A DNA stretch of 64,000 nucleotides from Kondoa subrosea. Its lineage: Eukaryota. Position 1 is the first letter of the stretch. Each line of letters opens with the position of its first letter. The DNA is taken from positions 434,001 through 498,000 of the forward strand of contig BCIN01000006.1 in NCBI GenBank assembly GCA_039545335.1, given 5' to 3'. The notes under the pieces are model-generated. The model made no database searches. It had not been told where the DNA came from and worked only from the letters and a program-made list of their open reading frames with translations. Shown here one piece after another: positions 3,247 through 64,000 of the stretch. The translations under genes and the position numbers were made by a program.

Positions 3247-4213
3247 ATGCAATCGCCTGATCTCTTCTCACGACCTCTATCATCAAACGTATCCAACATC
3301 TTTGATGAATCGCTCGTAGACAATGATTTAAGGTCAAGTGATGGATCTTTTGCTGCTGCTGTTTTAGAAGATCAAACTGTTCGACTGAGCTTGAATGAAG
3401 CACCTAGAACACCTGGAGCGAATATAATTTATCATGGATCTATGAGATCTGATACTCAACAGCAGCCTGAGCCAGAAGCAGCAATAGCGAGTACAAGTAA
3501 AGAAGTCGAAGCGTCTGGCAGTACTCTGACTGGAGATGAAGAGTTGATACTGGAACGAGATCGCTTGAGATCATTGAATGGGATACTAGAAAACACAATC
3601 ACTACTTTCACTTCAGCTCAAGCCAAAATGAAGGTAAGTCTCTCTCTCTCTCTGTGTCTTTCTGCGTCCATGGGCTGATGAATGAATGAGAAAAGAGGTT
3701 TTCTGAAACTATTGCAACAACTCATGATCTTATGGATCTTTATGTCTCACTCTTATCTCAAGCAGAACACAATCAGCGTTTACTTTTGAACCCAGAGTTT
3801 GAAATGGATAAAGATGTGGAACATGTTCTTGCCACTCGTCGAGCTGAAGAAGAACAAGAGGAAGCGAGGTTAAAAGGTTTGAAAGAGAAAGAGGAGCAGG
3901 AAAGAGTGCGGAGAGAGTTAAAAGAGAAGGAAGAACAGGAAGCTGCTTCGTCGAGAAAAAGTGAGTCCTGTTCGGCCAGGAAACTCGTTCACGCTGATTT
4001 GGATTGCCAGCGGCTCCATCTATATCGAGAGGAACAAGTAGAGGAAGAGGTAGAGGGACAATCAGAGGATCGGTTCCTGTCAAGAAAGCAGATCCAGCAG
4101 CAACATCGAGCATACCTGGTCGAGGCTCAGCAGTCGTTACTGGCGTAAGAGGTGTAAGAGGTCTTCGGTCAAGAGTTGCTACACGCGGAAGAGGAACAAC
4201 TCGAGGCGACTGA
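3247..4213 (+). CDS. DUO1: DASH/Dam1 kinetochore complex subunit Duo1
   Basis: LERDRLRSLNGILENTITTFTSAQAKMK...LMDLYVSLLSQAEHNQRLLLNPEF matches the DASH_Duo1 domain pattern, followed by a coiled coil and an RG-rich tail. Two introns. Confidence 0.8.
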
Positions 4214-18349: not shown

Positions 18350-18356
18350 TATAAAA
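18350..18356 (+). promoter_or_regulatory. TATA box of LPMO-like paralog B
   Basis: TATAAAA lies ~140 nt upstream of the ATG at 18493 and is followed by a CT-rich tract, typical of fungal core promoters. Confidence 0.55.
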
Positions 18357-18492
18357 AGCTTGACACTCCTCTTCCTCTCCCAACCACCTTCTCTGTCTTT
18401 TCTTTTTCTTCTCTTAACGACCTCTTGATTGCAAACCAAAAGCGCTGAGCGCCTTATTAAACTCGTTACACATCTCAAATACAACACCGAAT

Positions 18493-19962
18493 ATGCTTTC
18501 TCTATACACTCTCGTCTCTGCTGCAGTCCTGGCGACTTCAGTGCAAGCCCACACCTACCTTATCACTCCTCCTAGTCGTCTCTCAGTACTCAAGAACATT
18601 GGCACTTCAACTGAAGATGGTACAGGAAACGGTGCGGGTCTTTGTCATTTAGGGTGAGTCAGCATTCCAATTCTAAACCTCTTGGTTCGATCTGATCCCT
18701 ATGTACACAGAGACGGCACGCAAACTTGCTGCACTTCACAAACTATGGGAGGTCAAATGAAGACTTATCAACGTGGTGTAAGTGTATAGCCACTAATTTT
18801 CAAAGGAGGTCTGTGCTCATTGTCACTTTGTTCATCGACAGACCGAGATCCCAACAGCATGGTGGAGAAACAATCACGGTAAGTTTTCATCGCAATAAGT
18901 GGAAGTCCTTTTATCTGATGCATTTGCGAATAGTCGGAGGTTTCATCAGATATTCTATTGTTCCGATAGCCGATTCTGGTTCTCAAGATGCTTTCGACGC
19001 TGCTGAGAACATGTTGTCATACGAATGCAATCAAGTTGGTTGCTCTGCTACTTATGGCGGATCTTCGCCAAACAGTAAGTCTCGCATCATTTGAGATGAG
19101 CTTTGACCATAAGCTGATGTCATTCATCAATAGACTGGAACGGAGGTGATAGCGCAGGTAGCAAAGGATGGTCAAATGCATGCTCTGGTGCTTTCAAAAT
19201 TCCTTACCATCTTAAAGTGAGTGGCTACTATTGCACTCGACTGATCGTGTTTGATTGAAGTCATCTTACAGGACGGACAATACACTGTTCAATGGGTGTG
19301 GTTTGGTCAAGGAAACGGAAACGAGGCAAACTCTCCTTTCCAAGCATGTATCGATCTGAACATCAGCGGTGGTCCCAGTAAGCTTCCGTAATGAGCTTTG
19401 TTTCTAGCATACTCATTCCATGGCAGCTGGCTCTCCTCTCAAATGCCCTCTATGGAAAGGAGGAGATCTTTCGGAAGCTGGAGACAATGTTTGCACTTTT
19501 GTTTCAGTCAACAACCCAACATACCAGTGAGTATCTCGCTCTTTTCTTCAAATGCAGCAACTGATGAATTTCGTTAGGGGCGTATGCAAAGATGCCAACG
19601 CATGCCAAGGTGGTTACACAGTCGGTGTGCCAAAAGGTCTGCAAGATTGCGTCAACGGCAACAATCCTTCTACCTTCCCTCTTGCCATGGTCGCTGCTCA
19701 GTCTGGCGTACCGAACACCTATGCTTCTTACTCACCAGATGGTTCAGCTGCTTCTTCTGGAGGTTCTTCTTCTTCGGGTTCATCTTCAAGCAATTCTACT
19801 TCCTCTTCTTCTTCTTCCAATGGTTCATCAAACAATGGTGGTGGTTCGCTTACCGTTCAAACTGGAAAGAAGAAGTGCAGCGCCGGCTCAAAGAAGCGCA
19901 GACACTATGGTCGTCGATCTCACGTGCGTCGCGAAGGCTTGGAATTCGCTTACGATCATTAG
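18493..19962 (+). CDS. Secreted histidine-brace (LPMO-like) protein, paralog B; multi-exon
   Basis: Signal peptide MLSLYTLVSAAVLATSVQA, then HTYLITPPSRL...LCHLGDGTQTCC...YQRG.EIPTAWWRNNHGGGFIRYSIVP...GWSNACSGAFKIPYHLKDGQYTVQWVWFGQG...NSPFQACIDLNISGGP, a Cys-rich region, a poly-Ser linker and the basic tail KKKCSAGSKKRRHYGRRSHVRR. Confidence 0.85.
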
Positions 19963-26746: not shown

Positions 26747-28974
<2,228 letters not shown>

Positions 28975-33147: not shown

Positions 33148-35184
33148 ATGGGAGCTTTAGACATTGTACCTGTACGTGAATACTTCCACCTACTTAGTCT
33201 ATTGGAGCGAGCTGACTCAGCTTAGGCTGGTGTCATTACTGGTCAGTGCAAGCATCGCATAGGCGGATGAATAGTCGCTCAACCCATTCACTTTGCAACA
33301 GGCGAGAACGTGTATGTCTGGCTCAAGCAGAGATGGTTTAAGCTAATCCGGAGCCTTGCAGCAAGAAACTCTTTGCTTATGCTAAGAAAGAGGGCGTGAG
33401 TACTGCTTCGAAATGAGTTTCTTGTAATTCCTGCTAATCACTCTGTACTAGTTCGCTATTCCTGTATGTACTTGAGTGCCGGTGATGAGAGTAGCCTATG
33501 ACCGTGTCCTCATATATACAGGCTTTCGTGAGTTTCTGGCTGCCAAAGCTAGTCTAGCTGTGCTGACCTCGTGCTTACAGAACGTCACTTCATCCTCTAC
33601 CGCTGTAGCTGCGCTTGAAGGTGCCAGGGATGCTAAAGCACCAGTCATTCTGCAAATGTCTCAAGGCGGTGCCGCTTACTGGTATATTCGCTTCCTCGCT
33701 CAACGACTGCGCTAATAGACCACACAGGGCCGGAAAGGGAGTCAAGAACCCTGCTGAGACTCAAGCTGCTTCAGTCGCTGGAGCTGTAGCTGCCGCTCAC
33801 TACATCAGGTTTGTTTTGAAGATTATTGTCCAACAAAGCTAACTTGGTATGATAGGGCTGTTGCACCTGCATATGGCATGTCAGTATCTACGTCAATTCA
33901 TCATCTCACGCTGAATGTGCTGCAGCCCGGTCATTGTTCACACTGATCACTGCGCCAAGAAACTCCTACCTTGGTTCGATGGGATGCTCGAAGCCGACGA
34001 AGCTTACTACAAGAAGAACGGCGAGCCTTTGTTCTCTTCCCACATGTTGGATCTTTCCGAAGAGTCCAAGGAAGAAAACATTGAGATCTGCTTGAAATAC
34101 TTGAAGCGCATGGCTAAGATTGACTGCTGGCTCGAAATGGAAATTGGTATCACTGGTGGTGAAGAAGATGGTGTTGACAACACTGGCGTCGACAACAACT
34201 CGCTCTACACTCAACCTGAAGATATCTGGGACATCTACAAGGCTTTCTCTGAAGTCACTGATGCTTTCTCTATCGCTGCCGCTTTCGGTAACGTTCATGG
34301 TGTATACAGTAAGCTTGCTGTTTACATGGCCATACGCCATACTGATGTCTGGAGTGCAGAGCCAGGAAACGTTCGCCTTCACCCAGAACTTTTGGAAAAG
34401 CACCAGAAGTACGTCAAGCAACAGCTAGGTAAAGATGCACCGGAATACCCAGTCTTCCTTGTCTTCCACGGCGGATCTGGCTCTGCTAAAGAAGAGATCA
34501 CTACCGCTGTTAAGAACGGTGTTGTGAAGATGGTGCGTTCCAACTACGGATCCGGTGAGATTGATCACTGAGTCTGTACCGGCACGCACAGAACGTCGAG
34601 TAAGCTTAGCCCTCGATCTGTAGTGCGCTTTATTAATTCTTGACCAGCACCGACACTCAATGGGCCTACTTGATCGGTTTCAGGGAATGTAAGCGTTTTA
34701 CTATACGTCCTAGGATTATAGCTCACACGCCCTGAATAGACTTCAACAAGAAGAAGGTTCGCTATACAGCTCGTTTGTTTTCAGTAATATAGGCTGACCA
34801 GAATGTTGCAGGACTATGTTGCTACTCAAGTCGGCAACCCTGAAGGTCCGTTTAGAGTTGCCTTGTCTTTTCTTCGACTAACACAGTTTCAAAATGGACA
34901 GGCGCTGACAAGCCTAACAAGGTTTGTACTTGTATACTCCTTCTTGCTCATTGCTGAATTTACTTGGACAGAAATACTACGATCGTGAGTAGCGTTATTG
35001 ATCAGTCACCCAATTGCTAATATCTCTTGCGATGCAGCACGTGTTTGGGTCAGAGAAGGTGAAGTCACAATGCGTAACCGTGTACAAGAATCTATGAAGG
35101 ATCTGCTGTGCGTTGATTCATCTTCTTTGCGTGTTTCATGCTCAAAGACCCGGGTGTGCGTACAGATGCGAAAACCGTCTGTAA
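33148..35184 (+). CDS. FBA1: Class II fructose-bisphosphate aldolase
   Basis: HTDHCAKKLLPW, FSSHMLDLSEE, EIGITGGEEDG, AFGNVHGVY and VFHGGSGS are present. About 19 exons by manual splicing. Confidence 0.97.
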
Positions 35185-35618: not shown

Positions 35619-37547
35619 ATGTCCTCACAGCTGCTCGACCTGGGCATCACCTTATCACAAACCTTGACTATCGGTGTAGCTCTTGTTCTGGCCCATAGCT
35701 TCTTGCCTGTAGGCTATCATGAGCGCAAAATCCATGTCCGTGCAGGCTCACCCAGATCCAGGGCATTTGGACAGGTCTCACGACTCTTCAGTCTATTCCT
35801 GGACCTTGGCTGAACCGATACTCTGTCTGGCCATTACGTCTAGCTACTATTGGAGGGAAGCGCTGTCACTACATACATGAATTGCATCAGCGCTATGGGA
35901 ATGTGGTCAGACTCAGCCCTGACGAGGTTGCGATCAATGATCCTGCTGCCTGTAAAGCTATCCATGCCATAGGCAGCGGATTCCTCAAAGCTCCATGGTA
36001 TGCTAAGTTTCAGCCTCCGGCGCATGCAGGCGGAGGAGATGAAACACAAGGCATATGTGAGCAAATTCGCGTCGCTGATATAGGTAACGAGCTGATATTG
36101 AGTACAGTTGCTATGCGCAATCCGTGCGCTTTCACTGTGCCAATCTCTTCATCTACTTTCTAATATCCTTCATCAGTAAAATTCACTCTCGGAGACGGAA
36201 GCTCTTTTCGAATGCTTTCACCAAGACCAGTCTGCAAGAATGGGAAGATGTGCTACAAGAGAAAGTACAGATGACTATCGCAGGGATGAAAGAATCGGCT
36301 GCAAAGAAGGGTCATGCAGAGTTCGCTTCCATTGCCCGAATAAATTTATCGGCTGACGACAGATACAGTATCTTCGCTTGGTTCGGTTTTATGGTGCGCA
36401 CAGCTTGGTCTTTCAGTATCTCAAGCCTGCTAAAGCGTATGAGTAGGCTAATGATGTTATCGCTACGCTGTCATTTGGTCAGAGCTTCAAACTGCTTGAA
36501 GCTGGAGAGGTCAGTCAAATCCTCTCATTCTCGCATATCAGCTAAATCGGCCAAGGTCACACCTTTCGTCCGGGATCTAGGAAGGGTCATGATGATCGAT
36601 GGAATATTACTCGACTTGCCGTACTTGAAACCAATTCTGAAACTCTTTTCGCCAAACGCGAAAGTAGATGCAGTAGGTCAACGAGCCATGGCGCAATGTA
36701 TGGAACAAGAGGCATCAATGCCAGGTCATCGAGGCAATATCTTCACCAAAATGATGGCTTCAAAAGATCTTGATTTTGCGCAAATAAGCAAGGAAGCTAC
36801 GAATTTCTTGATTGCTGGAAGTGAAACTACTGCTATTACTCTCACTTACCTCATCTATTCTGTTCTCAAACCGGAGCAAGAAGATGTGAAGAGAAGATTA
36901 GTGCAGGAAGTCTCGCAGCTGAAACCTGACTTTTCAAGTACTGAAGCAATGGATTTGCCTTATCTACACCAGGTTATTCAGGAGACTCTAAGATTATATG
37001 GCGCCGCGCCAGGTATCTATTTCTTGCTTGTCATATAACTCAGCTCATACTCAGTCGACAGGGTCACTGCCGCGATCTGTACCTCAGAATGGCCGTCATC
37101 TAGCAGGCTATGCTTTCCCTGCCGATACAGTTGTAGTTCGTCTGGCGCGTAATTTCCGTGGATTTATCTTGACGCGTGATAATAGTCGACTCAAGCATTC
37201 TCTCTACATCGCGACGCAGTAGTCTTCCCCAATCCAGAGGAATTTGATCCATCGCGCTGGAATAATCCCTCAGACTCGATGAAAGACAGCTTCATGCCTT
37301 TTGGAGGCGGAACAAGAGGTGCGCGCAACCTTTTTTTCCTTCTTTAGAACCCTGAGAGCTGATCTACGCGATAGTCTGTATTGCCGCACGTCTGGCCACT
37401 ATGGAGATGGCGCTGGCAACCGCGACATTCTTCAGAGCTTTTCCCGACGCGAAATTAGCACAAGATTGCACGGAGGACAGTATGAGCATGGAAAACTACT
37501 TTATCATCGCTCCAAAAGCTCATCAGTGTAATATTCTACCGTACTGA
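35619..37547 (+). CDS. Cytochrome P450 monooxygenase
   Basis: N-terminal TM segment and PGPW, LHQRYGNVVRLSPDEV, I-helix AGSETTA, K-helix ETLR, FDPSRW, and heme loop FGGGTRVCIA (spans an intron). Confidence 0.92.
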
Positions 37548-44144: not shown

Positions 44145-47100
44145 TCATAGTGCTGTGCCATTTGCATTGGCATGTTTCTTCGCTTCTTGCATCAATGGCT
44201 ACATAACGAAATCAGGAAAGATACTTGTGACGTTCAGAACAACATACAGCGAAAAACTGTATCAGAGCAAAGGAAGTGAGTGAATCAGTCTAAATTGAAT
44301 CCTTTCAGTCGCTGCTGTACCTTTTTGAAGACCTTCCCGCTGCAGAACGTACATCAATGTTGTTTCCAGGCTGCTTCAGACATGAACCTACTCCGGAGCA
44401 GAAGCTAAAGCGGCCAAGAATTCCTGCCCTTTGGCTTGAGGGTAGCCAACGGCAGGGAAGGTGACATTGATCATTTGTTGGCGGAAGTCATCTCCTCTTC
44501 TTTGTTCCAGAGCTTTGAGCAGGTTGGAGATTTCCCCTAGAACCTAAATCGCGCAAGTTTCATCGACTTATGGCGAATTGAGTTCGTGATGAACATACAT
44601 TGAATGACTGGGCATCTCCATAATCAAAGTCTTTCTTTAACGGAATAGTGAAACAAAGTTGCAAAGGCTGTTGGTAGTAGAACTGCTCGAAATTGGGTAT
44701 CGTTGCCGCTACTGGTGTTTTACCGTTGGCGACTGTGGAAGGATCGATCGGTGGAATCCATGTTAGAGCCATACGTGTTAATACTAGTAAACCTGCTCGG
44801 GTATCAGCTGGGAATTGATGCGATGTCGTGTAATGCAGAATGCTGTTGATGAAGTTTTCGAAATAAGGTTTGTTGGCTGAGAGAACAATCAGGCTGCGAC
44901 CTAGGCTTGTGTGTGTACTAAGGCTCACATTCTGCAAGGAATATGTCTTGCATGTTCGCGTTGAAGATGGAAGTAATGATGCTGAAATAAGCGCGGCGCA
45001 ATTCGGAATGTTGAAAAGCCTCATCGGTACCTTGAGGAGTCGGCTCAAGATGAAGATAGACGCGCGCAAAGATTTGGTAGATGATGGCTTGTAAGAGGGG
45101 TATGCAATCCTCCTAAGTAAAACCAAATCAGTAAAAAGAAGCTGTAAAATTTTGGATGCCTACCTTGTAGCGATTGAGGAGAAGCGAGAGGAAAGGAAGG
45201 AAGTCAATGAGCTCTTGAGCTTTCATTTGACCAATTAGACAAGCAATGAGCGGCTCAATGAACGGTAGCACGCTCTTGCCGAGTGTCGCGACAATGATCT
45301 TGAAAGCGCCGAGGGCCTGTGAGTGAAATGCCAGAAGTCAGCACTTTAAGACTGCTGAAAGCACATTCACTCACAGCTTCTCGAATGATCAGTACTCCGC
45401 TCATCTGTTTTAACGCGTCGATGATTGTCTGAGTAGCAGCCTTGAAGATTTCCACCCAAGCCCCACTGGCGGATTGCGTTGTTGAAGAGAGAGAAGGGAA
45501 ACCTTTCGCTAGATTCCCGATGGCCAGAATATAATGATGCAACCGAAGAACAGAATGCAAATCTTCCACAGTTGCGATAGTTGTCTTGATATTGGCTTTG
45601 AGTCCAGCAAGTAATTGATCCATCAAGACCTTAGCATTCTCTCAGCTAAATGTCAATACTTCGGACAATCTCAACTTACCTGCAAGATAGCTGCTTGTTC
45701 TTGGGGAGATCGCTGCATGGTGTGGACAAGAGTCCCGACGCATTCAAACAGATATAGCTGGCTGTCGAATCGACTTGCGCCATGTGCAGCTTTGACCAGT
45801 GGATCACCTTCTGTCGAGTCGGCTGCCGGTAACGGTTCCACTTCGATGACGAGCAGATCCTGTATGTATCAACCTGTTCAGGCACTTGATGTACACAAGC
45901 ACGAATCAGGTTACATACCTGAACAGCATTGAGGATTTCAGTAATAAATTCCGGAGATACGTTCTTCTGGATCTGCTCTTTCGCATAGAAGATGAAACGA
46001 TGAAAGAGGTAGAAGCAGCGTGCTCTGGCTACTCTAGATGTCTGGTGCAGACCTCTGTAAGACAGACAAACGAAAGAATCAGCCTAAGCCAAAATTCGTG
46101 TCGAATTGCCATACCTTTGGTCTAAGAAGGCTTGAATAACAGTGGGGATAGGAGAAGCGTTGATGATGAAGAAATCATGGTACCGCACAACGCATTCGAA
46201 GAATTGCAATGGCACGGAAGGATGAGGAAAGCTAGAGATGGAAGATTGAGTTACTCGCAGAACAAGCTCTCCGAGTGGTGAAAGAGGATATTGCGACAGA
46301 GCGGCAAGCTCTTCTTGAGAAGTTCCTGCGGCTCGCTTCTTGTTTGTATTAGGTGGAAGAATAACGAAGGAGGTTGGTAGAACGCCATTGCCTGTGAACT
46401 GATCAATTTTGGGTTCAATCATACAGAAGTTTTGCGTACCTTTCAGTGCCTCGCCGTAGAGGTAAAGTACAAAGAGTACAAGTTCAACTTGTTGCCAAGA
46501 TAGAGAAGCTTGACCGCCATTGTCCAAAGTATCCAGCACGCCATGAATCACGGTGCGAACATTGCTGACGAAGAGTTCTTCCGACAAGACCGCAATAGCG
46601 TCAAACAAGGTCTTGAGGTTCTTTCTCATCTCCACAAAATGAGCAGCAGCTTCTTCATCTTCGTCATCATCTCCTCCACCCCATTCTTCTTCTGTTGCAT
46701 ACTGCATCTTCTTAATGACTACTTGGAAAAGGGAGTTGAGGAAAGAAGTCTTTTCCGGTGTTAAATGACCTTGCAAATCTTTCTTCTTATCTTTCTTGAA
46801 CAAAGTCAAATAGCTTGCAGCCAAGGGGATCACAGCAGAAGCAGTGTCATCATATTCATCACTGAGGAATCCAAGGAGTAAATCTTGAAGAGCCATCAAA
46901 AGTTCTCTACCTTCTTTCCTTTCTTGTTCCGAAATCGTTCCATCTTCAGCAATTTTAGCTAATTCACTTCCAACAACATTCAAGAGTTTTGCTAATTTTT
47001 CCCTGAAAACTTCTTCTGCTTCAGGTACGTCTTCTTTACTTGCTTTCTTGCTTTCGTTTAATGCGGAACAAAGGTTTGTCAAGATAGAATGCAAGTTTAG

Positions 47101-48159
47101 GAATTGAATGAGCTTGAGTTTGTCGGTTGAAGGCATTCCTTTTCCTACTGTTTCTATCAAAGTATCTGCTACTGCTGTACGAATGGATATAGAAGGTAAT
47201 TGGAGAGCTTGATAGATAAGCGGAACGGATTCAGGTGAGATGATGAGATTGATATCGACCCAAGCTACGTAATCGCCAAGAACTTTGACAGAAAGTTCCA
47301 CTAGATCAGCAGAAACTTGTGAAGTTGTTGCTGTTGACAAAGCTTCCGATAAGATGGAGAAGACTGAAAGTGCAATGTTGGAAGAATCTCTGTCTCGGAC
47401 TAGATCTCGCATAGCTGCATCTTTGTTTGTTCGAGTGAAAGGTTTGTTAAGTCGTAAGCTAGTATCGATCAATTCTGTGCTGATCTCATGTAACAGTCGC
47501 AGATACAGATCAGCAGTTTTCGGATTGAGCGGCTGATCTTGTGCTGGTCGAACGAGTCCGACAAAAGAGCTGAAGAAGTCTGGCCAACTTGTTTGATATG
47601 TCTGATAGAACAGTAAGAAGAGTGTTCGACCAAGTTTGTTCTTCAAATCTGTTCACAAGCAGCGAAATGGTCTTCAGAGTGTCAAGATGACCGCTTGAAA
47701 GATAGCATACAAACGTTGGTGCCTTCCGCTTGGCCATTCAAAAATTCCCTCTGTACATAATCAAACAGTGATGTTTGCAGATTGGCCGTAGCAGCGGCAT
47801 CCAAGTGCGCGTTGCTGGAAATGGCAATACAATGATACGAGTACGATGAAAATAAGAGAATACAAAGGAAGAAGGGAGGAAAGAGAGCGACAAGTGATAA
47901 ATACATGACTCGTCAATTGCGAGAGAGCAACCTACCCGTCATTGCCTAAAGCTTCGTCAACCACTTGCAGACAGAATAGCCGCGCTTCAGCAGTGGAAGC
48001 GTCCTGTCCTTGAGCCAAGAAGAGCTTCAAGCATTCAGAGTAAGTTTCCAGAGGACGAGACTTGATTTGTTCAAGAAAAGTGTATGCCTCTTGTCTCTGC
48101 TGCTGACTAGAGCCTGGTGCCAGAGCTAAAGAGACTGCAGCTGCTATACTGGCGCTCAT
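44145..48159 (-). CDS. LOS1: Exportin-T (tRNA nuclear export receptor)
   Basis: Importin-beta-type helical protein with NKLGRTLFLLF..YQTSWPDFF, LKTLFDAI, WQQVELVLFVLYLYGE, VPLQFFECVVRY and LAIGNLAKGFP. Confidence 0.88.
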
Positions 48160-48330
48160 GCTGAAGTGTCGGCGTTCAGTGTCAAGAAAATTCATTCGAC
48201 TTGCCCAGATACATCCAACTTCGGTCTCGACAAGTAAACCCATACCCTCTCGTCGAGTAGATTGTCGTGTGGCCGAAGTCTCTACCTTTCTGTTGATATC
48301 AATTTCAGCCTTTGAGTCGACTTGCCCAGC

Positions 48331-50191
48331 ATGCAATCTTTGATCGAAACTCAGAGGGCTGCCCATACTCGCTACTCTCACTTGAATGCCTCTCTAGTCA
48401 CCACACTAGCCTCACAACCCGTTCCATCCGCTTCAACACACCGAGAACGCTTGAATCACGCTCACCGAGGTTCACATCTTTTGAACAAAGTTACAGATAC
48501 AGCAAAAGACTTGTCACTGTCTTACGATGATCATGTGGCTCGAATGCAAGAGATTGAAGCTTTAGCTGGATCTGGTGTTAAAGGCAACGATGTGACTGAA
48601 TTCTATAATCGCTTAGCTCAACTCAAAGATTGGCATAGAAGACATCCACAACCTGCTATTACTGCTGGTACAGATTCAGAAGATATGGATTTTGGTCAAG
48701 ATTGGGCAGAATTGGAAGGTGCTGGTGTAGAGGAAGGCAAAGATTACTTGGATCGAATGTTCAGTGGTGAAGAATCTCTGGGTCGATACTACGATCTCAA
48801 TACTTTGCACAACATGTTCACCAACTTACCTGGTGCTCAAAGACAACTTTCTTACCTCTCCTTTCTGGATCAATTTGACCAGTTCGGCGCAATAGCCAAA
48901 CAAAGAAAACTTCATGGCGAAAAGTACAAGCAATATTTGGATTCGCTCTATACCTATCTCATGGATTTCGCAAAAAGAGCTTTCCCTCTGGCGGATGTGA
49001 AAGCTTTGGTTTCGCAAGCGAAGAAGGAATTTGATGATTTGTGGGAGAACAATGCTGTTCCTGATTGGACGCAAGAAGCATCGACGGATGGTGCTAGTGC
49101 AGAAGGTATCTGGTGTGGTGCTTGTAAGTCATTTCCAGATCGATATCAGTTTTAAGCTGATTATGACATGGGCTTGGACTACAGGTCAAAAGATGTATTC
49201 GAAACAGACAGTCTATGATGCTCATTTGACATCAAAGAAACATCTCAAAGCTTCTGCAGCAGCTAAAGCAGCAGACGGAAGCAGCACACCACAAGCTTCT
49301 TCTTCTACCGCAGCACCAGCAGGCGCGACCTCAAACAAGGAGAAAGAACGTCTCCGCGAGCAACATCTAGCTCAACAAGAACATCTTATCACTGCTCTGC
49401 TTACCAACTCAGCTTCACCTTTGTTACCCATTCGAGCAGAAACGAAATCCAATGTAGAACGAAGAGCTTCTTTGACTGATCGAGAGCGAGCTCAAGAATT
49501 GGAAGATTTGGAAAGAAGAGAAGCAGAGGAAGCTGCTGAAGCTGCTAGTGGAGCACCAAAGAAGAAGGATGAGTTTGTGGATGAACGAGATGAAGAGGAA
49601 AGATTGTACAACCCGCTCAAATTGCCTCTTGGTTGGGATGGCAAACCGATTCCATATGTGCGTATTGATGATTTCTGTTGCTTCTTATCAAGCTCAGAGA
49701 TTCTCTAAATGTACAGTGGTTGTACAAGCTACATGGTTTGGGTGTAGAATATTCTTGCGAGATCTGTTCGGGTCGATCATGTTCGTAGTTCTCTAGCTAG
49801 CTTGCGCGCTTTGTCGCTGACGCCAGAAGCCCGAACAGATAACGGTCGGAAAAACTTCGAACGCCATTTCCAGGAAGCCAACCATACTTTCGGTATGAAA
49901 GCCCTTGGTCTTCCCAATACGAAGCATTTCCATGAAATAACAAAGATCGAAGATGCTATTGCTCGTGCGTCCACCCATGACATAATTGCCCGGTACTGAT
50001 GTCTCCATAGTCGCCGAACGCTTGAAGGCCGAAGGAAAGCAAGAGATTTTCAGAGCTGAAGAGATGGAAGAGCTAGAAGACGACGAAGGCAACGTATACA
50101 ATAGAAAGGTCTACAATGATCTGAAAACTCAAGGTGATACTGTTTGCAGTCTGTTACTTCCTTCGCTCATTCTCTTTCAGGTCTACTATGA
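48331..50191 (+). CDS. PRP9: Splicing factor SF3a subunit 3 (Prp9/SAP61)
   Basis: [13 protein letters not shown], a C..C...H..SKKH zinc finger, [33 protein letters not shown], and [25 protein letters not shown]. Confidence 0.95.
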
Positions 50192-56203: not shown

Positions 56204-58167
56204 TTACAAGCCAAACCTAGTCCCATTTACAGCCGTCTCGATTACGCCTTGTACTATCCCATCAACGACTTTCACAGACCCGTCTGCATTCAATAAATCC
56301 CCATTCGGATGAGCCAGTTTGAAAACGAAAGCCAACAACAATTGTCCGACCACTTCAAAATTTTATATACATCAGCATACCAAACCCTCAGCCGAAAAAG
56401 CATAAAAAGCAAAGAACTGACCATCCATCAATGAAGAAAATAAAGGTAAAGCATGCAAATCCGGATCATAACCTGCTTTCCAAAGCGCAACGCTCATCAT
56501 ATAGGCTGTTCCCAAACAAATAGCCAAAACCAGTATGACCATAAGTAAGTAAAGGACTACCAGAGTAGCGTTAAGGTTGACTTGACCAGTCACTATAGCG
56601 AAGATGAGGAAAAGCCAAAGCATTGGAGTAGAGATCAAGAAGAGAGTAATGGCTGTCATTTTGTGAGGTGAAGTAGCGAAAGTTGATCCATGCAGAGAGG
56701 TGGAAATGCGTGAGATGAGAATAGCGCCGACATTGCCTGAAATACCAGTGACGACTGATGCAATGAGACCGAAACCTTTGAAAGCTGAGATGTAGTTTTC
56801 TAGTACTAGGCCAGTACCGCTGTAAAACCCAGATACCTTTACATCATTGTATTATGATGTAAATTGACCGGGCTTACCTTGAGATCAGCATAGCTGCTAT
56901 AAGTGTGAACCAACCGGTAGTAAGCAGTTCTTGAACATAAGCGTTCCGCATGCTGATAACGGCATTGATGGCGACCATGAAAAGAAGGGCAATGAAGACG
57001 AGAGTAGAGACGATGGTGCCTATCTGTAATATCAGTAGTTACCCTTTAAGCAGTAAGGTAGCGCAACGGACCCATCGACATGACCAGTACAGCGCTGACT
57101 AGTCCTAGTAGTACCAAAGCAAGCAAATCTCCCATACTTGCTGCAAGAGGAGTAGCAATATTATCCTGTCATCGCATACTCATTCAGCTCCATTTGTTGA
57201 AATCTCCTGCTCTCAAGACTTACCGGATTGATCCTCCATTTCCTACTCAACACGACCAAAGCGCACATAAAGCTACCCACAACCGCACTACTCAAACCAG
57301 CAGCCAACATACTTGCCGCAAGAACAGTAACGCATTCAAAATAGCCACCAATCTCTTGCGTGCTAGCAGGCGTCGATACTCTACTCAACAAACCAAGAAC
57401 AAAAGCTATCAAGCCAGCCAAAAGAGAGACTAGCAAAGCTTGAACTTGTAATAAGGCTAAATTACCAAAGACGAGAGTTTGACGAGTGAGTCTGATATCT
57501 AGTTCACCGATATTGGCTGAAGTGGAGAATCGAGCTGCGAGATTCATTTCGATGTTCCCTTTTAAGTTGAGCAGGATAGGCACTAGAATAAAGAGTTCTG
57601 GTACGCGTTGAAACGAAGTCCAGGTCTAATTGACAAGTCAATGAGCTACTGAAGAGACGCTGGAAAGGATGAGAGACAAGCGCACCTTCAACCGAGCTAA
57701 AAGTTCACCAGCAAGGACTGATCCAGCAGCTGAAAGTATGAGCATTGGTACCGTCTGCATATTCCTTAATCAGTTCCAATGCCGCAAGTGACAGAGAAGA
57801 TTGCCTACTTGGAAGGTCATCTCCTTTGCGAACTCTGCATAGGGATCAACATTCAATACGAGGCGCATCGTACATGCATGCGCAACTTTAGGCACTGACC
57901 TGCTCGTTGTCGACGCTTTTTGGCAGCTTTCCTCTGAGCAGGTGTCAATCCATCTTGTAGTGCAAGATCCAATCTACTACCACTACTACTACTGCCACCA
58001 TTCCCTTGCTGCCTTCCTAGAGATTTTGACTGAGTAGTACCAGATTCATCAATTCCGCTCGTTAATAAATACTCCTCGTCGTCCTCTGGGCTTTCAGCTT
58101 GGGTTACAGTGGTACGTGGTATTCGAGGAGAAGACTTGGTATCCGTGGAAGAAGCATTGCTTTGCAT
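56204..58167 (-). CDS. SLC41 / MgtE-family divalent cation (Mg2+) transporter
   Basis: Two MgtE repeats: PILLNLKGNIEMNLAARFSTSANIG and INP|DNIATPLAASMGD; then GISGNVGAILISRISTSLH and GYDPDLHALPLFSSLMD. Confidence 0.9.
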
Positions 58168-60369: not shown

Positions 60370-60514
60370 ACTCAGATTTGGTGTACAGAATAGAGCATTT
60401 CATTTGCATTATGTAATTTTTTTACCCATATAGAAAGCATCAAAGAACACCCGAGAAACACGAGATACTGACGAAAAGCGAAACATTCACTCCTTCTTCT
60501 TCTTCTTTCACCCA

Positions 60515-63500
60515 CTATTGCAAGCGAGGGTATAAACTGGTATTTCCATCTCCTTCTTCTTCTTCCTGCTCGGCTTGGAAAGTGACTCTTCGTCCAGAAG
60601 CTGATCTAGGTAGACTTCCATTCGCCAAACCAGATTTCCTAGGTCCTCGAGCAGAACCAGGAGTTCGATGAGGTGTGTCGGAAAGCAACATTCCAGCAGA
60701 AGCTCCGGAAGAAGCTCCAACCCATTCCCAAGCAGGAAGCATTTCTCCTTTATAAAAAACAATGCCATATCAGAAATGCAGTTAAAAAGTTGTAAAGGAG
60801 TGTAATGAATACCTTTGATTTCCCTTTCACTGCATCGAACGTTGGAATTGCCTTCAACAATCTTGCTTACTTTTCGCCAGAGTGCTCTTCGAGTAGCAGG
60901 TGAATGTTCTTCTGCTAGAATATCATCTCGTAATTGAGCAGAAGCGACATAAGGAGTAGGTGTAACAACAGGATCAGAATAATAAGCTCGTTCCTGTTTA
61001 CTCCACAAGGTCAGCTTTCAGTTTAAGCAGACTACCATGAGAACAAGAAAGCTGACCTGATCTTGTAGAGCGCCATAAGCAACTTGTACCAGTTCTCTTA
61101 CTCGCTCATTCTCAGCCTTCGATTTCCTTCTTTTCTCCCTCAAGTAAAGGATCATAGCCAAAGCGCTCAAAGTACTACTTAATTCAGTCTTGTGCTTTGA
61201 AGCGCTTTCGTAAGAACGTTTCTTGATCCAGCAACCAAGTGGTAAGTCAGCAGTGGTAGAAGTAATGTAGACTTCTCCGCTAAGAACGCTTTTATCGGCA
61301 TACTGAAAAAAGATCGTGGAACATGGACAGTACTCACTCTGCATTTTCACCTCGTTTGATCTCATTATGTTTCTCCATATCACTCAAAGCCTTGTCAAAG
61401 TATTCATCCCATAAATCAGTCGGGATCTTGTCCTGAAAAGTAAACAGACCAATTTCAAGGCTTTTCCGATCGATCTTTCGGAAAACTCACGACACCTTGG
61501 AAATCCTTCATCCCTTCTTTTAACTCTCCCAATTTCAAGCCATACCAAACAGCTTCATCCAACGAATCTTTTCCTCTACTTCTACCAGAACATTCAACTT
61601 CTCCTCTATGAACTTTCAATTTCCCTTGCAAACCAAGAACCAATTGAGCAACTCGAATTTGTTTTTCCGTATCAGGAACGCAAACTTCAGGTAAAGGAAT
61701 CAAGTTGAACGTTGCGGCTGATAAGAAAGATTGTCGTCTAACGAAATCTTTGTTGCAGGCTATGAATTTGCCTTGCAGACAAACACCATTGATTGGGCAA
61801 GGCATACAACTTGGTCGAAGTCCATAAGTGGTGAGAGTGGAAGGTTGGTGGACTAAAGCGACGGAATTGGTTTCTGGTGAAGTTGGGGAAGCGTTAAGTT
61901 CACGTGTTGCTTGAATGGAATTGGTTGTCACACCAGTATCACAATAGCCTACTGCTAGTTGCTCGGAACGATACCAACCCAAATATGAAATGATTGCGAG
62001 AAGCACAGGAAGCCAACCGAATGATTTGACTGGCGCTAATGCAGAAGTGGAAGATCGAACAGCTACTTGGTGCTGATTAGAAGCTTTAGCAGGAAAATCT
62101 CGATGTTGCGTCTTGGGTGATTTCTTGAGTGGTTCAGGTTGAACAAAGACTTGAGTTGAGGACTCTTGAGCTGCCAAAGTCTTCTTTGGCGAGGCTTTAG
62201 GTGGAGATTTTGGTGGAGAAGGTTTGCTCTGATTCATTGCTACAGGAGGTTGTTGTTGGCCAGAAACTTGACGCATCAATTGCTTGACATGTTCAGGAGT
62301 AGCTTGAACGGAACTGACGTCCATGTATTTCTGGAATTGAGGCACACTGACTGATCTATTGATAGCAGCAGGTGGTGTATCAACCAGCGGAGAAGCGAGT
62401 TGTCGCGCAGCACGACGGGGAGAAGGTTTCTTCTGGATTTGTTCGGGTTCGGGAACTGATTCGAAATCAGCATCCATTTCAAAATCCGGAGGAGCTGGAG
62501 TCTCATCAAAAGCCGGATCATCAAAAATGGAAGATTGGTTGATGAAGGATTCGGTAGCCAGACTCGAACGAGGCTTGCGGACGCTGCTTCGACGATCTGA
62601 TCGATCTACTAGAGAAGGCATAGACTTGCTGCTGCTCAAGGTACGAGGTGCTGCAAGTTCAGAGGAAGCCAAAGATGACTGAAGACAATAGTCAGGGGCG
62701 ACTCCTGGGCTCCAACAATGGAAAACTAACCTTCCTACGTTTCTTCCTATGACTATCACCGCTATCATCTGCACCCTTCTGGAAAGGATTGTAGTCAGAA
62801 AAGCCAGATTCGTTAGCCCCTGCAGGTTCGCTTGAAATATGATCCTGTGCGGCCAAGGTAGTCAACAATGACCGATTATGATTGTCCACTCGTCAACGCA
62901 CCTCTTCAATCTTTGGGACAGGAGGAACAATGACAACATGGGGAGCAGGAGCTTTTCCGATAGATTTGCGAGGTCTGACAACAGGAGGTTTAGGAATAAC
63001 TACTGACGGGACTTCTGGATCTTCGTAGAAAGCAGCCTGTACGTCGTGATCATACCCTAGGTCAACAAAGAACACAGTATGTATTGCGACTTACAGGTTT
63101 CTTTGCGCTGGGAGGCGCAGGTGGATCTGAAGAAGGTACTGGTGGTACTGCTGCAGAATTCTTGGGAGGTCTTCCTCTTGGCCTTTTAGCAGGTACGATG
63201 ACAGGCTATCATAATGAGTGTAAGTTACACGTGTTTTCTGAGGTGTCTTTGTTGCATACCTGTACATCCTCCTCTTGTGGCTCTTCGATATCTTCCTCAG
63301 CGCTTTCCGGTTCGATAGCAGCCTTCTGCGGGACAGCTAAGGATCTTCTGCTTCGCGAAGTAGGTAAAGGAGGAGCAATTGATTTCCTAGGTTTCGTAGC
63401 TTTGATTGATGCAAGACTAGTGGTTCTGGTCATTCTCCTTGGTGCATCGAGCATCTCTACATCCTGAGTCTCTTGCTGAGTCTCTTTAGGGTCCTCATCC

Positions 63501-63775
63501 ATATCGTTAGACGATTGACTTGAGTTGTTTGAAATGCGTAGAATGCCTCTGTCTGAAGGTGTAACTTTCTTTCTCTCTGCTAAGATAGCACTGGCTCTAG
63601 GCGTGACTTTAGCCTTGAACAGCTTGACCAATTCCGGTTTCTTGGCTGAAGTATGGAATTCGCCAGTGTATTCCAACAAAAGGGACCTTAGTTGCGGAAC
63701 CTTGAGTGACTCCGGTGCGAAGCCTGGCTGGAGGTGAGCATCTTCTGGCGCTACTGTCACAGTCTCGCGAGCCAT
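60515..63775 (-). CDS. SRC1: Inner nuclear membrane LEM/HeH protein Src1/Heh1 (Man1-Src1 C-terminal domain)
   Basis: N-terminal HeH domain LQPGFAPESLKVPQLRSLL..HTSAKKPELVKLF, FSDYNPFQ, TM-WYRSEQLAVGYCDTG, CMPCPINGVC, CVPDTEK, QLRDDIL, and LWRKVSKIVEGNSNVR...WEWVG. Confidence 0.92.
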
Positions 63776-64000
63776 TGTGGGAGAATTCCAAGATGTTAAT
63801 TTGGTGGATCAAAACAAACCGGAAATCGAAAAAGCAAAGGTGCATAACACGGAGGCGTAGACGCAAGATACGTAATGAAGGACATGCAAGTGGAGAAGTT
63901 ATTTACAAAGCAGTCTATGATGATCACTTTCTACAGATCTTGTCGATTCGATCGAGCTCAGCGCGAACCTCTTCTATGTCTCTTGATTTGACAGATCCAG

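Follow-up and report, generated by a model that had tools for sequence, protein, structure and literature searches.

Gene structure and protein layout

The window analyzed here is a stretch of 64,000 nucleotides from Kondoa subrosea (Eukaryota; assembly GCA_039545335.1, contig BCIN01000006.1, positions 434,001 to 498,000 of the forward strand), and all coordinates refer to this stretch. Positions 18493–19962 of its plus strand contain a gene for a predicted secreted protein, which an earlier note made from the DNA letters had proposed as a candidate copper histidine-brace enzyme resembling the lytic polysaccharide monooxygenases (LPMOs). The gene consists of eight exons, joined at canonical sites and separated by seven GT..AG introns of 50–64 nt. 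The spliced coding sequence has a length of 1080 nt and encodes 359 amino acids plus the stop codon. The gene and the elements directly upstream are arranged as follows:

18350–18356, plus strand: TATA-like box, some 140 nt before the ATG, read from the sequence and of presumed function
18392–18492, plus strand: probable 5' untranslated region; bases 1–262 of a relative's contig (L001) match 18392–18653, and the open reading frame of L001 starts at base 102
18493–18653, plus strand: exon 1, with the signal peptide (18493–18549) and the His20 codon (18550–18552); donor GTGAGT after 18653
18711–18777, plus strand: exon 2, preceded by AG and followed by GTAAGT; the relatives' contigs match 18712–18777
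18842–18878, plus strand: exon 3, with His88 (18875–18877) as last full codon; contigs L001, L002, L003, and L005 match exactly 18842–18878, and L006 matches 18844–18878
18934–19074, plus strand: exon 4, from the splice model and blocks of the relatives' contigs
19134–19216, plus strand: exon 5, likewise from the splice model and contig blocks
19272–19377, plus strand: exon 6, with Ser184-Pro185-Phe186 (Phe codon 19338–19340) at the axial position and with the last core strand
19427–19526, plus strand: exon 7, where the Cys-rich C-terminal extension begins; from the splice model and contig blocks
19578–19962, plus strand: exon 8, with the end of the extension, the linker (19732–19848), the tail (19849–19959), and the stop codon (19960–19962); colinear with the relatives up to the stop

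As the earlier note had stated, the introns hide this gene from the list of open reading frames: it has no long open frame, and its longest in-frame piece is the last exon with 143 amino acids. Splicing and translation, the check proposed there, yielded a 359-residue protein that matches its relatives from end to end. Five full-length relatives (P0001–P0005; 354–372 amino acids) were retrieved from a search of longer proteins with exon 1 alone as query, and their end-to-end alignments with the window protein have identities of 89.5, 86.1, 77.7, 76.7, and 74.5% and no gaps at the exon junctions. Relatives are also encoded on six metagenome contigs of 1.25–1.4 kb, as unbroken frames with short flanks. 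When aligned to the window on the DNA level, these contigs form blocks (a first one ending at 18653, then 18712–18777, 18842–18878, 18933–19072/19074, approximately 19129/19134–19217, 19272 onward, and 19429 onward), and the contig-side coordinates are continuous across the joints. Since the blocks stop at the predicted exon edges, they confirm the eight-exon splice model, and since the contig sequences lack introns, the six contigs are probably derived from mRNA. The TATA-like box at 18350–18356 lies about 40 nt upstream of position 18392, where the alignment of a relative's mRNA-like contig begins, and the 5' untranslated region is approximately 73% identical to such a contig.

The protein starts, with the ATG at 18493, with a predicted signal peptide (residues 1–19) that ends in Val-Gln-Ala, and His20 is the first residue of the mature protein; this N-terminus had been described correctly. 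The second His, reported previously as part of a WWRNNHxGGF motif, is His88 at the end of exon 3 (the “x” stands for a Val whose codon is divided by intron 3), and the Phe of the late motif was found as Phe186 in exon 6. All quoted elements are thus present; the alternative letters in the motif derive from the second gene copy of the window (see below). Contrary to what had been assumed, the “...ISGG” motif does not mark the end of the domain. Instead, a conserved and confidently modeled Cys-rich extension of about 80 amino acids continues beyond this point to approximately residue 283, followed by a Ser-rich linker (residues 284–322) and a polybasic tail of 37 residues. The mature domain contains 12 Cys, and a thirteenth is located in the tail. 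As read from the translation, the C-terminus is hydrophilic and basic, and therefore does not represent a glycosylphosphatidylinositol (GPI) signal. The single-Cys polybasic tail behind the Ser-rich linker, which carries several dibasic pairs, is conserved in both paralog lineages discussed below, and it also occurs at the C-termini of the family members P0001–P0006, P0013, P0155–P0157, and P0170. It could function as a wall or membrane tether, as a processing site, or as a metal-binding tail.

Family distribution and database status

Of 1.84 billion cluster representatives searched with a profile built from five mature domains (A2), 315 were matched with E ≤ 1e-3; for 135 of these E was ≤ 1e-10, and for 10 it was ≤ 1e-30. 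In almost every complete match, the N-terminus is a signal peptide and the next residue is His. With respect to phyletic distribution, the search thus revealed a widespread eukaryotic family, whose named members stem from oomycetes (Pythium brassicae, Pythium oligandrum), Blastocladiomycota (Paraphysoderma sedebokerense, Allomyces arbusculus), and one amoebozoan (Nematostelium gracile). The label of the named members at NCBI is “hypothetical protein”, the Nematostelium record has a transcript identifier only, and the UniRef label of the P. oligandrum protein is “AA9 catalytic domain-containing” (AA, auxiliary activity). A word-based homology search with the family alignment retrieved 26 proteins, of which only two were named, both as “hypothetical protein”. 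The closest cluster in the ESM Atlas consists mostly of Zoopagomycota (score 0.93), which is a lead only.

That the family is poorly described, as the earlier note had suspected, is supported by the lack of a Pfam or NCBIfam match for the window protein or its close relatives and of a describing paper among those located. In Pfam, six of the seven exon translations had no family, the Ser-rich last exon had low-complexity matches only (all below the cut-offs), and P0001–P0005 also had low-complexity matches only and no family. The AA9 model (PF03443) did not match the exon translations or P0001–P0005 at E ≤ 10, and neither LPMO_10 (PF03067; AA10, AA15, and AA16) nor the BIM1-like model PF20238 (X325) matched the window protein or close relatives. 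NCBIfam contained no family for P0002 or P0004. Both proteins were also unmatched by model NF043005 (SCE4755 polysaccharide monooxygenase-like; cut-off 75 bits), for which the best of 27 family members scored 21.2 bits. Searches of the literature, including by DUF7492 and by the accessions of the named members, found no description of the family, with subscription journals thinly covered. AA18, a bacterial enzyme family, is not known to have the LPMO fold. It is present in CAZy (PMC13431639). A paper on signal strapping concerns bacterial proteins (PMC12537917). The fold and the metal site presented below are thus of known kinds, and what is lacking for this family is a Pfam or NCBIfam model, an informative source name, and a located paper. 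Its designation as unclassified is based on Pfam, NCBIfam, source names, and literature, and within CAZy the family may already be classified, for example as distant AA11.

The wider family was assessed in a Pfam scan of 153 representatives (53 at E ≤ 0.01, 100 at E ≤ 0.001). No LPMO-type match was obtained for 118 of them, and the remaining 35 had weak matches to AA9, DUF7492, BIM1-like, or LPMO_10 models. Only four representatives exceeded the Pfam cut-off (P0030, P0036, P0040, and P0141, each to AA9), and LPMO_10 matched a single protein (P0077) below its cut-off. Additional modules comprised the carbohydrate-binding module CBM18 in seven of the 153 proteins (three above the Pfam cut-off), a fusion to a GH18 chitinase in P0139, a CBM2 fusion in P0048, and Ricin-B, P-domain, and PKD/EGF modules in P0116, P0083, and P0128, respectively. 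Sub-cut-off matches to the C-terminal half of PF24320 (DUF7492) were observed in 19 of the 153 representatives, including P0006, P0019, P0056, and P0067, and a DUF7492 cluster of mostly Zoopagomycota lies close to the window protein in the ESM Atlas. DUF7492 may be another uncharacterized LPMO-like family.

Kinship, putative metal site, and predicted fold

A family alignment of 137 rows (A3) was compared as a profile to the PDB, and 29 of the 30 matches at E ≤ 1 were LPMOs. The AA11 structures 4mah (AoAA11; E 5.1e-10, chain residues 1–157) and 9exj (E 5.4e-9) ranked highest, followed by the AA9 structure 7ntl (E 1.5e-7), the AA16 structure 7ze9 (MtAA16A, PMC10088020; E 5.3e-7), the AA11 structure 7p3u (AfAA11A, PMC8668981; E 2.7e-6), and many further AA9 entries (E 1.5e-7 to 0.075). 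AA10 structures were not among the matches at E ≤ 1, nor were structures of AA13, AA14, AA15, and AA17. Since structural matches to AA13, AA15, and AA14 exist, these three families are excluded only as close sequence relatives and may still be relatives by fold. Among the known families, AA11 and AA9 are the closest, and not AA10, AA15, and AA16, whose layout the earlier note had found to be similar.

The alignment of A3 with 4mah begins at chain residue 1 and places the second His of the family on residue 60 and the axial position on Tyr140. His1, His60, and Tyr140 of 4mah are presumably the copper-site residues of AoAA11. In the window protein, His88 aligns with His60 of AoAA11 (A3), and in the A2 alignment Phe186 is located on Tyr140 and Ser184 on the AA11 Glu (Glu138). 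The axial residue is thus Phe rather than Tyr, as had been proposed. The copper site of AfAA11A is made up of His1, His71, and Tyr133, with Ala69, two positions before His71, as the other axial residue (PMC8668981), and that of AfAA11B of His1, His61, and Glu139 (PMC12186267). An axial Tyr together with a second-sphere Glu two residues earlier is described as the hallmark of AA11 (PMC12186267), and an axial Phe is normal in chitin-active AA10 enzymes (PMC8668981).

Counted over the non-gap rows of A3, 106 of 114 have the first His, 129 of 134 have the second, and 125 of 132 carry an aromatic residue at the axial position (Tyr 95, Phe 25, Trp 5). The complete triad of His, His, and Tyr or Phe is intact in 93 of the 137 rows (72 with Tyr and 21 with Phe), and the rows without it are mostly truncated at the N-terminus. 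Among the 100 rows that start with Met and have the aligned His, this residue is found 15–31 residues from the Met in 86 rows, preceded by Ala, Gly, or Ser at position −1 in 93 rows and by a small or aliphatic residue at position −3 in 97 rows. With the site residues conserved at these counts, the quoted motif is not a chance pattern. The residue two positions before the second His is Asn in 103 of the 137 rows, and the preceding residue is Arg in 120. As far as can be judged from the alignment, this conserved Asn and the Arg before it may form a second sphere specific to the family.

The distribution of the axial residue was followed on a FastTree phylogeny of 135 rows, in which rows with fewer than 150 domain residues were left out and the spliced window protein, P0002, and P0155–P0157 were added. 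The window gene belongs to a clade of ten rows with Phe in every member (support 94). This all-Phe clade comprises a lineage of P0001–P0005 and the window gene, a lineage of P0155, P0157, and P0006, and P0156. Two rows with Tyr or Trp form its sister group, and the combined 12 rows have a support of 99. On the whole tree, the state changes between Tyr and Phe at least ten times. A paralog of the same family lies on the minus strand of the window at approximately 416–2188, as found by tblastn with the spliced protein and P0155, P0157, and P0006 together with a three-frame reading (the limits are approximate). Orthologous to the P0155/P0157/P0006 lineage, it is more intron-rich than the gene at 18493–19962, with which it shares the signal peptide followed by His, the second His, the axial Phe, the Ser-rich linker, and the basic Cys-containing tail. 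One of its introns apparently splits the codon of the N-terminal His.

AlphaFold2, given A3 as alignment, was used to predict the structure of the mature domain from P0002, a relative with 89.5% identity to the window protein. The model has a mean predicted local distance difference test (pLDDT) score of 88.4 and a predicted template modeling (pTM) score of 0.89; it is weak only at about residues 20–40 and 110–130, and from residue 181 to its end the pLDDT per 10-residue block is 89–98. As anticipated, it has the beta-sandwich fold of LPMOs, and its top matches are LPMOs only. A Foldseek search of the PDB returned 51 matches at E ≤ 1e-3, with AfAA11B and AA9 enzymes on top. In a second look at the structural matches, AfAA11B (9hdg; Z 11.3, root-mean-square deviation 3.4, 167 aligned residues), 9exj (Z 11.0), and 4mah (Z 10.1) ranked before AA9, AA15, AA10, and AA13 structures (Z 8.2–9.7). 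All 50 among the matches listed were LPMOs, and the alignments begin at model residue 1, which in the case of AfAA11B falls on His1 of the chain. A wide structural search of 48,161 chains, which was independent of Foldseek, placed only LPMO or LPMO-like structures on ranks 1–23 (Z 9.7–7.2), among them AA15 (Z 9.7), AA13 (Z 9.0), AA16 (7ze9; Z 8.0), X325 (6ibh; Z 7.6), and AA14 (Z 7.2). Below these followed the effector NIS1 (8xgl; Z 6.7) and unrelated sandwiches (Z ≤ 6.3). The AA11 alignments reach model residues 254–258, so that the extension behind the core is similar to the one found in AA11 and AA9 (PMC8668981).

AA11, represented by AoAA11 (4MAH), AfAA11A (7P3U), and AfAA11B (9EXJ/9HDG), comprises fungal and mostly chitin-active enzymes and provides the best match both by sequence and by structure. 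The N-terminal His, the second His, the axial aromatic residue, and the extension after the last core strand can all be aligned, and distant members of the window protein's family carry chitin-related fusions. Furthermore, AA11 occurs in most basal fungal lineages (PMC8668981). The protein could accordingly be a very divergent AA11 enzyme proper whose family is already classified and merely lacks a Pfam model, but we regard this as quite unlikely. Structural identity to AA11 is only 13–17%, and the A2 subfamily profile barely detects AA11, with 4mah scoring 17.8 bits (E 0.017 versus the PDB), which would be non-significant in the large library. AA9 is close behind in the A3 search, the residue two before the second His is Asn in the window protein and Ala in AoAA11, and the family extends beyond the fungi to oomycetes and an amoebozoan. 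The axial Tyr and the Glu of AA11 are replaced by Phe and Ser, and the protein is therefore referred to an unclassified family of the LPMO superfamily and not to a demonstrated AA11 group.

The resemblance to other families is more limited. With AA9 (PF03443), many structures of which are matched by A3, the protein shares the fold, the histidine brace, and the C-terminal extension, but these PDB matches cover mainly the last strands, and the Gln-x-Tyr of AA9 is missing at the aligned place. Chitin-active AA10 enzymes such as CBP21 (2BEM), with a structural Z of 8.3–8.9, likewise have Phe at the axial position, and their last strand is similar, but they lack a C-terminal extension (PMC8668981). 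The AA16 match could indicate an oxidase that mainly produces H2O2 or oxidizes small molecules and does not cleave polysaccharides, because MtAA16A was matched by both sequence and structure, and AA16 has a complete histidine brace although no tested carbohydrate was cleaved (PMC10088020). However, this match is weaker than those to AA11 and AA9, AA16 has no C-terminal extension, and the window protein did not match LPMO_10, which makes such an oxidase distinctly improbable. Finally, the fold is common to the non-enzymatic effector NIS1, and a wall or effector protein that retained the LPMO fold without binding metal is conceivable. We consider this extremely improbable, since both His, the axial aromatic residue, and the signal peptidase site before the first His are strongly conserved over the 137 rows.

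Proposed function and genomic context

The A3 matches to AA11, AA9, and AA16 structures and the predicted LPMO fold provide computational support for the earlier proposal of a secreted histidine-brace protein of LPMO type. Taken further, the protein is probably a secreted copper-binding member of the LPMO superfamily that takes part in the oxidation of chitin-type polysaccharides near the wall, in a family nearest to AA11 and AA9. What the analysis shows is the gene model, the family, the class of fold, and the alignment of the three metal-site residues; copper binding, catalysis, substrate, and localization are inferred. Once the 19-residue signal peptide has been cleaved off, His20, through its amino group and its side chain, and His88 would hold a single copper in a histidine brace, with Phe186 as axial residue beneath the metal, an arrangement like that in chitin-active AA10 enzymes. 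The most likely reaction would be the oxidation, with O2 or H2O2, of a polysaccharide of chitin type on the surface of the fungal cell or close to it. The Ser-rich linker, which is probably O-glycosylated, and the polybasic Cys-containing tail may keep it close to the wall. The dibasic pairs of the tail may alternatively be sites of processing. Positioning of the co-substrate may have been taken over by the conserved Asn or by a neighboring conserved Arg or Gln. Chitin is our best guess for the substrate class, because it is the only polysaccharide repeatedly tied to the family by fusions and because AA11 is the nearest family.

Several observations weigh against this function. The second-sphere Glu position two residues before the axial residue is occupied by Ser184 in the window protein, and in the family mainly by Gly (53 of 137 rows), Ser (21), and Pro (16), and histidine-brace proteins without the correct second sphere are reported to have no peroxygenase activity (PMC12186267). 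The chitin-binding fusions are found in Tyr-type clades far from the all-Phe clade of the window gene, and no carbohydrate-binding module was recognized in the window protein itself (Pfam, with the exon translations and close relatives). In addition, the Z-scores for representatives of AA9, AA11, AA15, AA13, and AA10 differ by no more than about 1 in the wide structural search.

Some of these points would also fit a non-catalytic, copper-binding LPMO-like protein that captures or passes on copper at the cell surface, in the style of X325/Bim1. In line with this, the aligned second-sphere position has no Glu or Gln, no carbohydrate-binding module was recognized, and linker and tail could tether the protein to the surface. 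LaX325 (6IBH, PF20238) is likewise a secreted fungal protein with histidine-brace fold and disordered C-terminal region, and weak BIM1-like matches below the cut-off were obtained for P0021 (E 0.0017) and P0077 (E 2e-5). However, at Z 7.6 LaX325 matches the model much more weakly than true LPMOs and ranks below 19 of their representatives in the wide search, the BIM1-like model is unmatched by the window protein and its close relatives, the basic and hydrophilic tail is no GPI signal, and fusions to chitin-binding and chitinase modules occur elsewhere in the family. A role in copper handling thus appears unlikely, although it deserves consideration.

A bolder extension of the LPMO reading places the window gene and the paralog in a new auxiliary-activity LPMO family of early-diverging fungi, oomycetes, and amoebozoa, with a different second sphere (a conserved Asn two positions before the second His and no Glu or Gln before the axial residue), in which the all-Phe clade with linker and polybasic tail would act on the organism's own wall or on a substrate so far unassigned to any LPMO family. 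We regard this as a genuine possibility, albeit with somewhat less than an even chance.

The newly recognized LPMO families have so far each brought a new substrate or biological role (for example AA14–AA17 and the X325 copper proteins), and the family described here comprises at least 315 sequence clusters from several eukaryotic groups and is positioned between AA11 and AA9. If active, it would widen histidine-brace chemistry by a different second sphere and help to approach how early-diverging fungi and oomycetes remodel their walls or turn over chitin. If its role is limited to copper binding, it would represent a second lineage of LPMO-like copper-handling proteins.

The long frames of the window include no chitin or copper gene cluster around 18493–19962. 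The neighbors are housekeeping genes, and the genomic context therefore holds no functional clue. The following fungal nuclear genes are found in the window:

3690–4145, plus strand: DASH Duo1
26750–28355, minus strand: isopropylmalate synthase
33915–34568, plus strand: class II aldolase
36088–37035, plus strand: P450
39848–41404, minus strand: forkhead factor
44563–47652, minus strand: exportin-T
48316–49152, plus strand: SF3A3
56375–57625, minus strand: MgtE-type transporter
60511–63808, minus strand: Src1/Man1-type inner nuclear membrane protein

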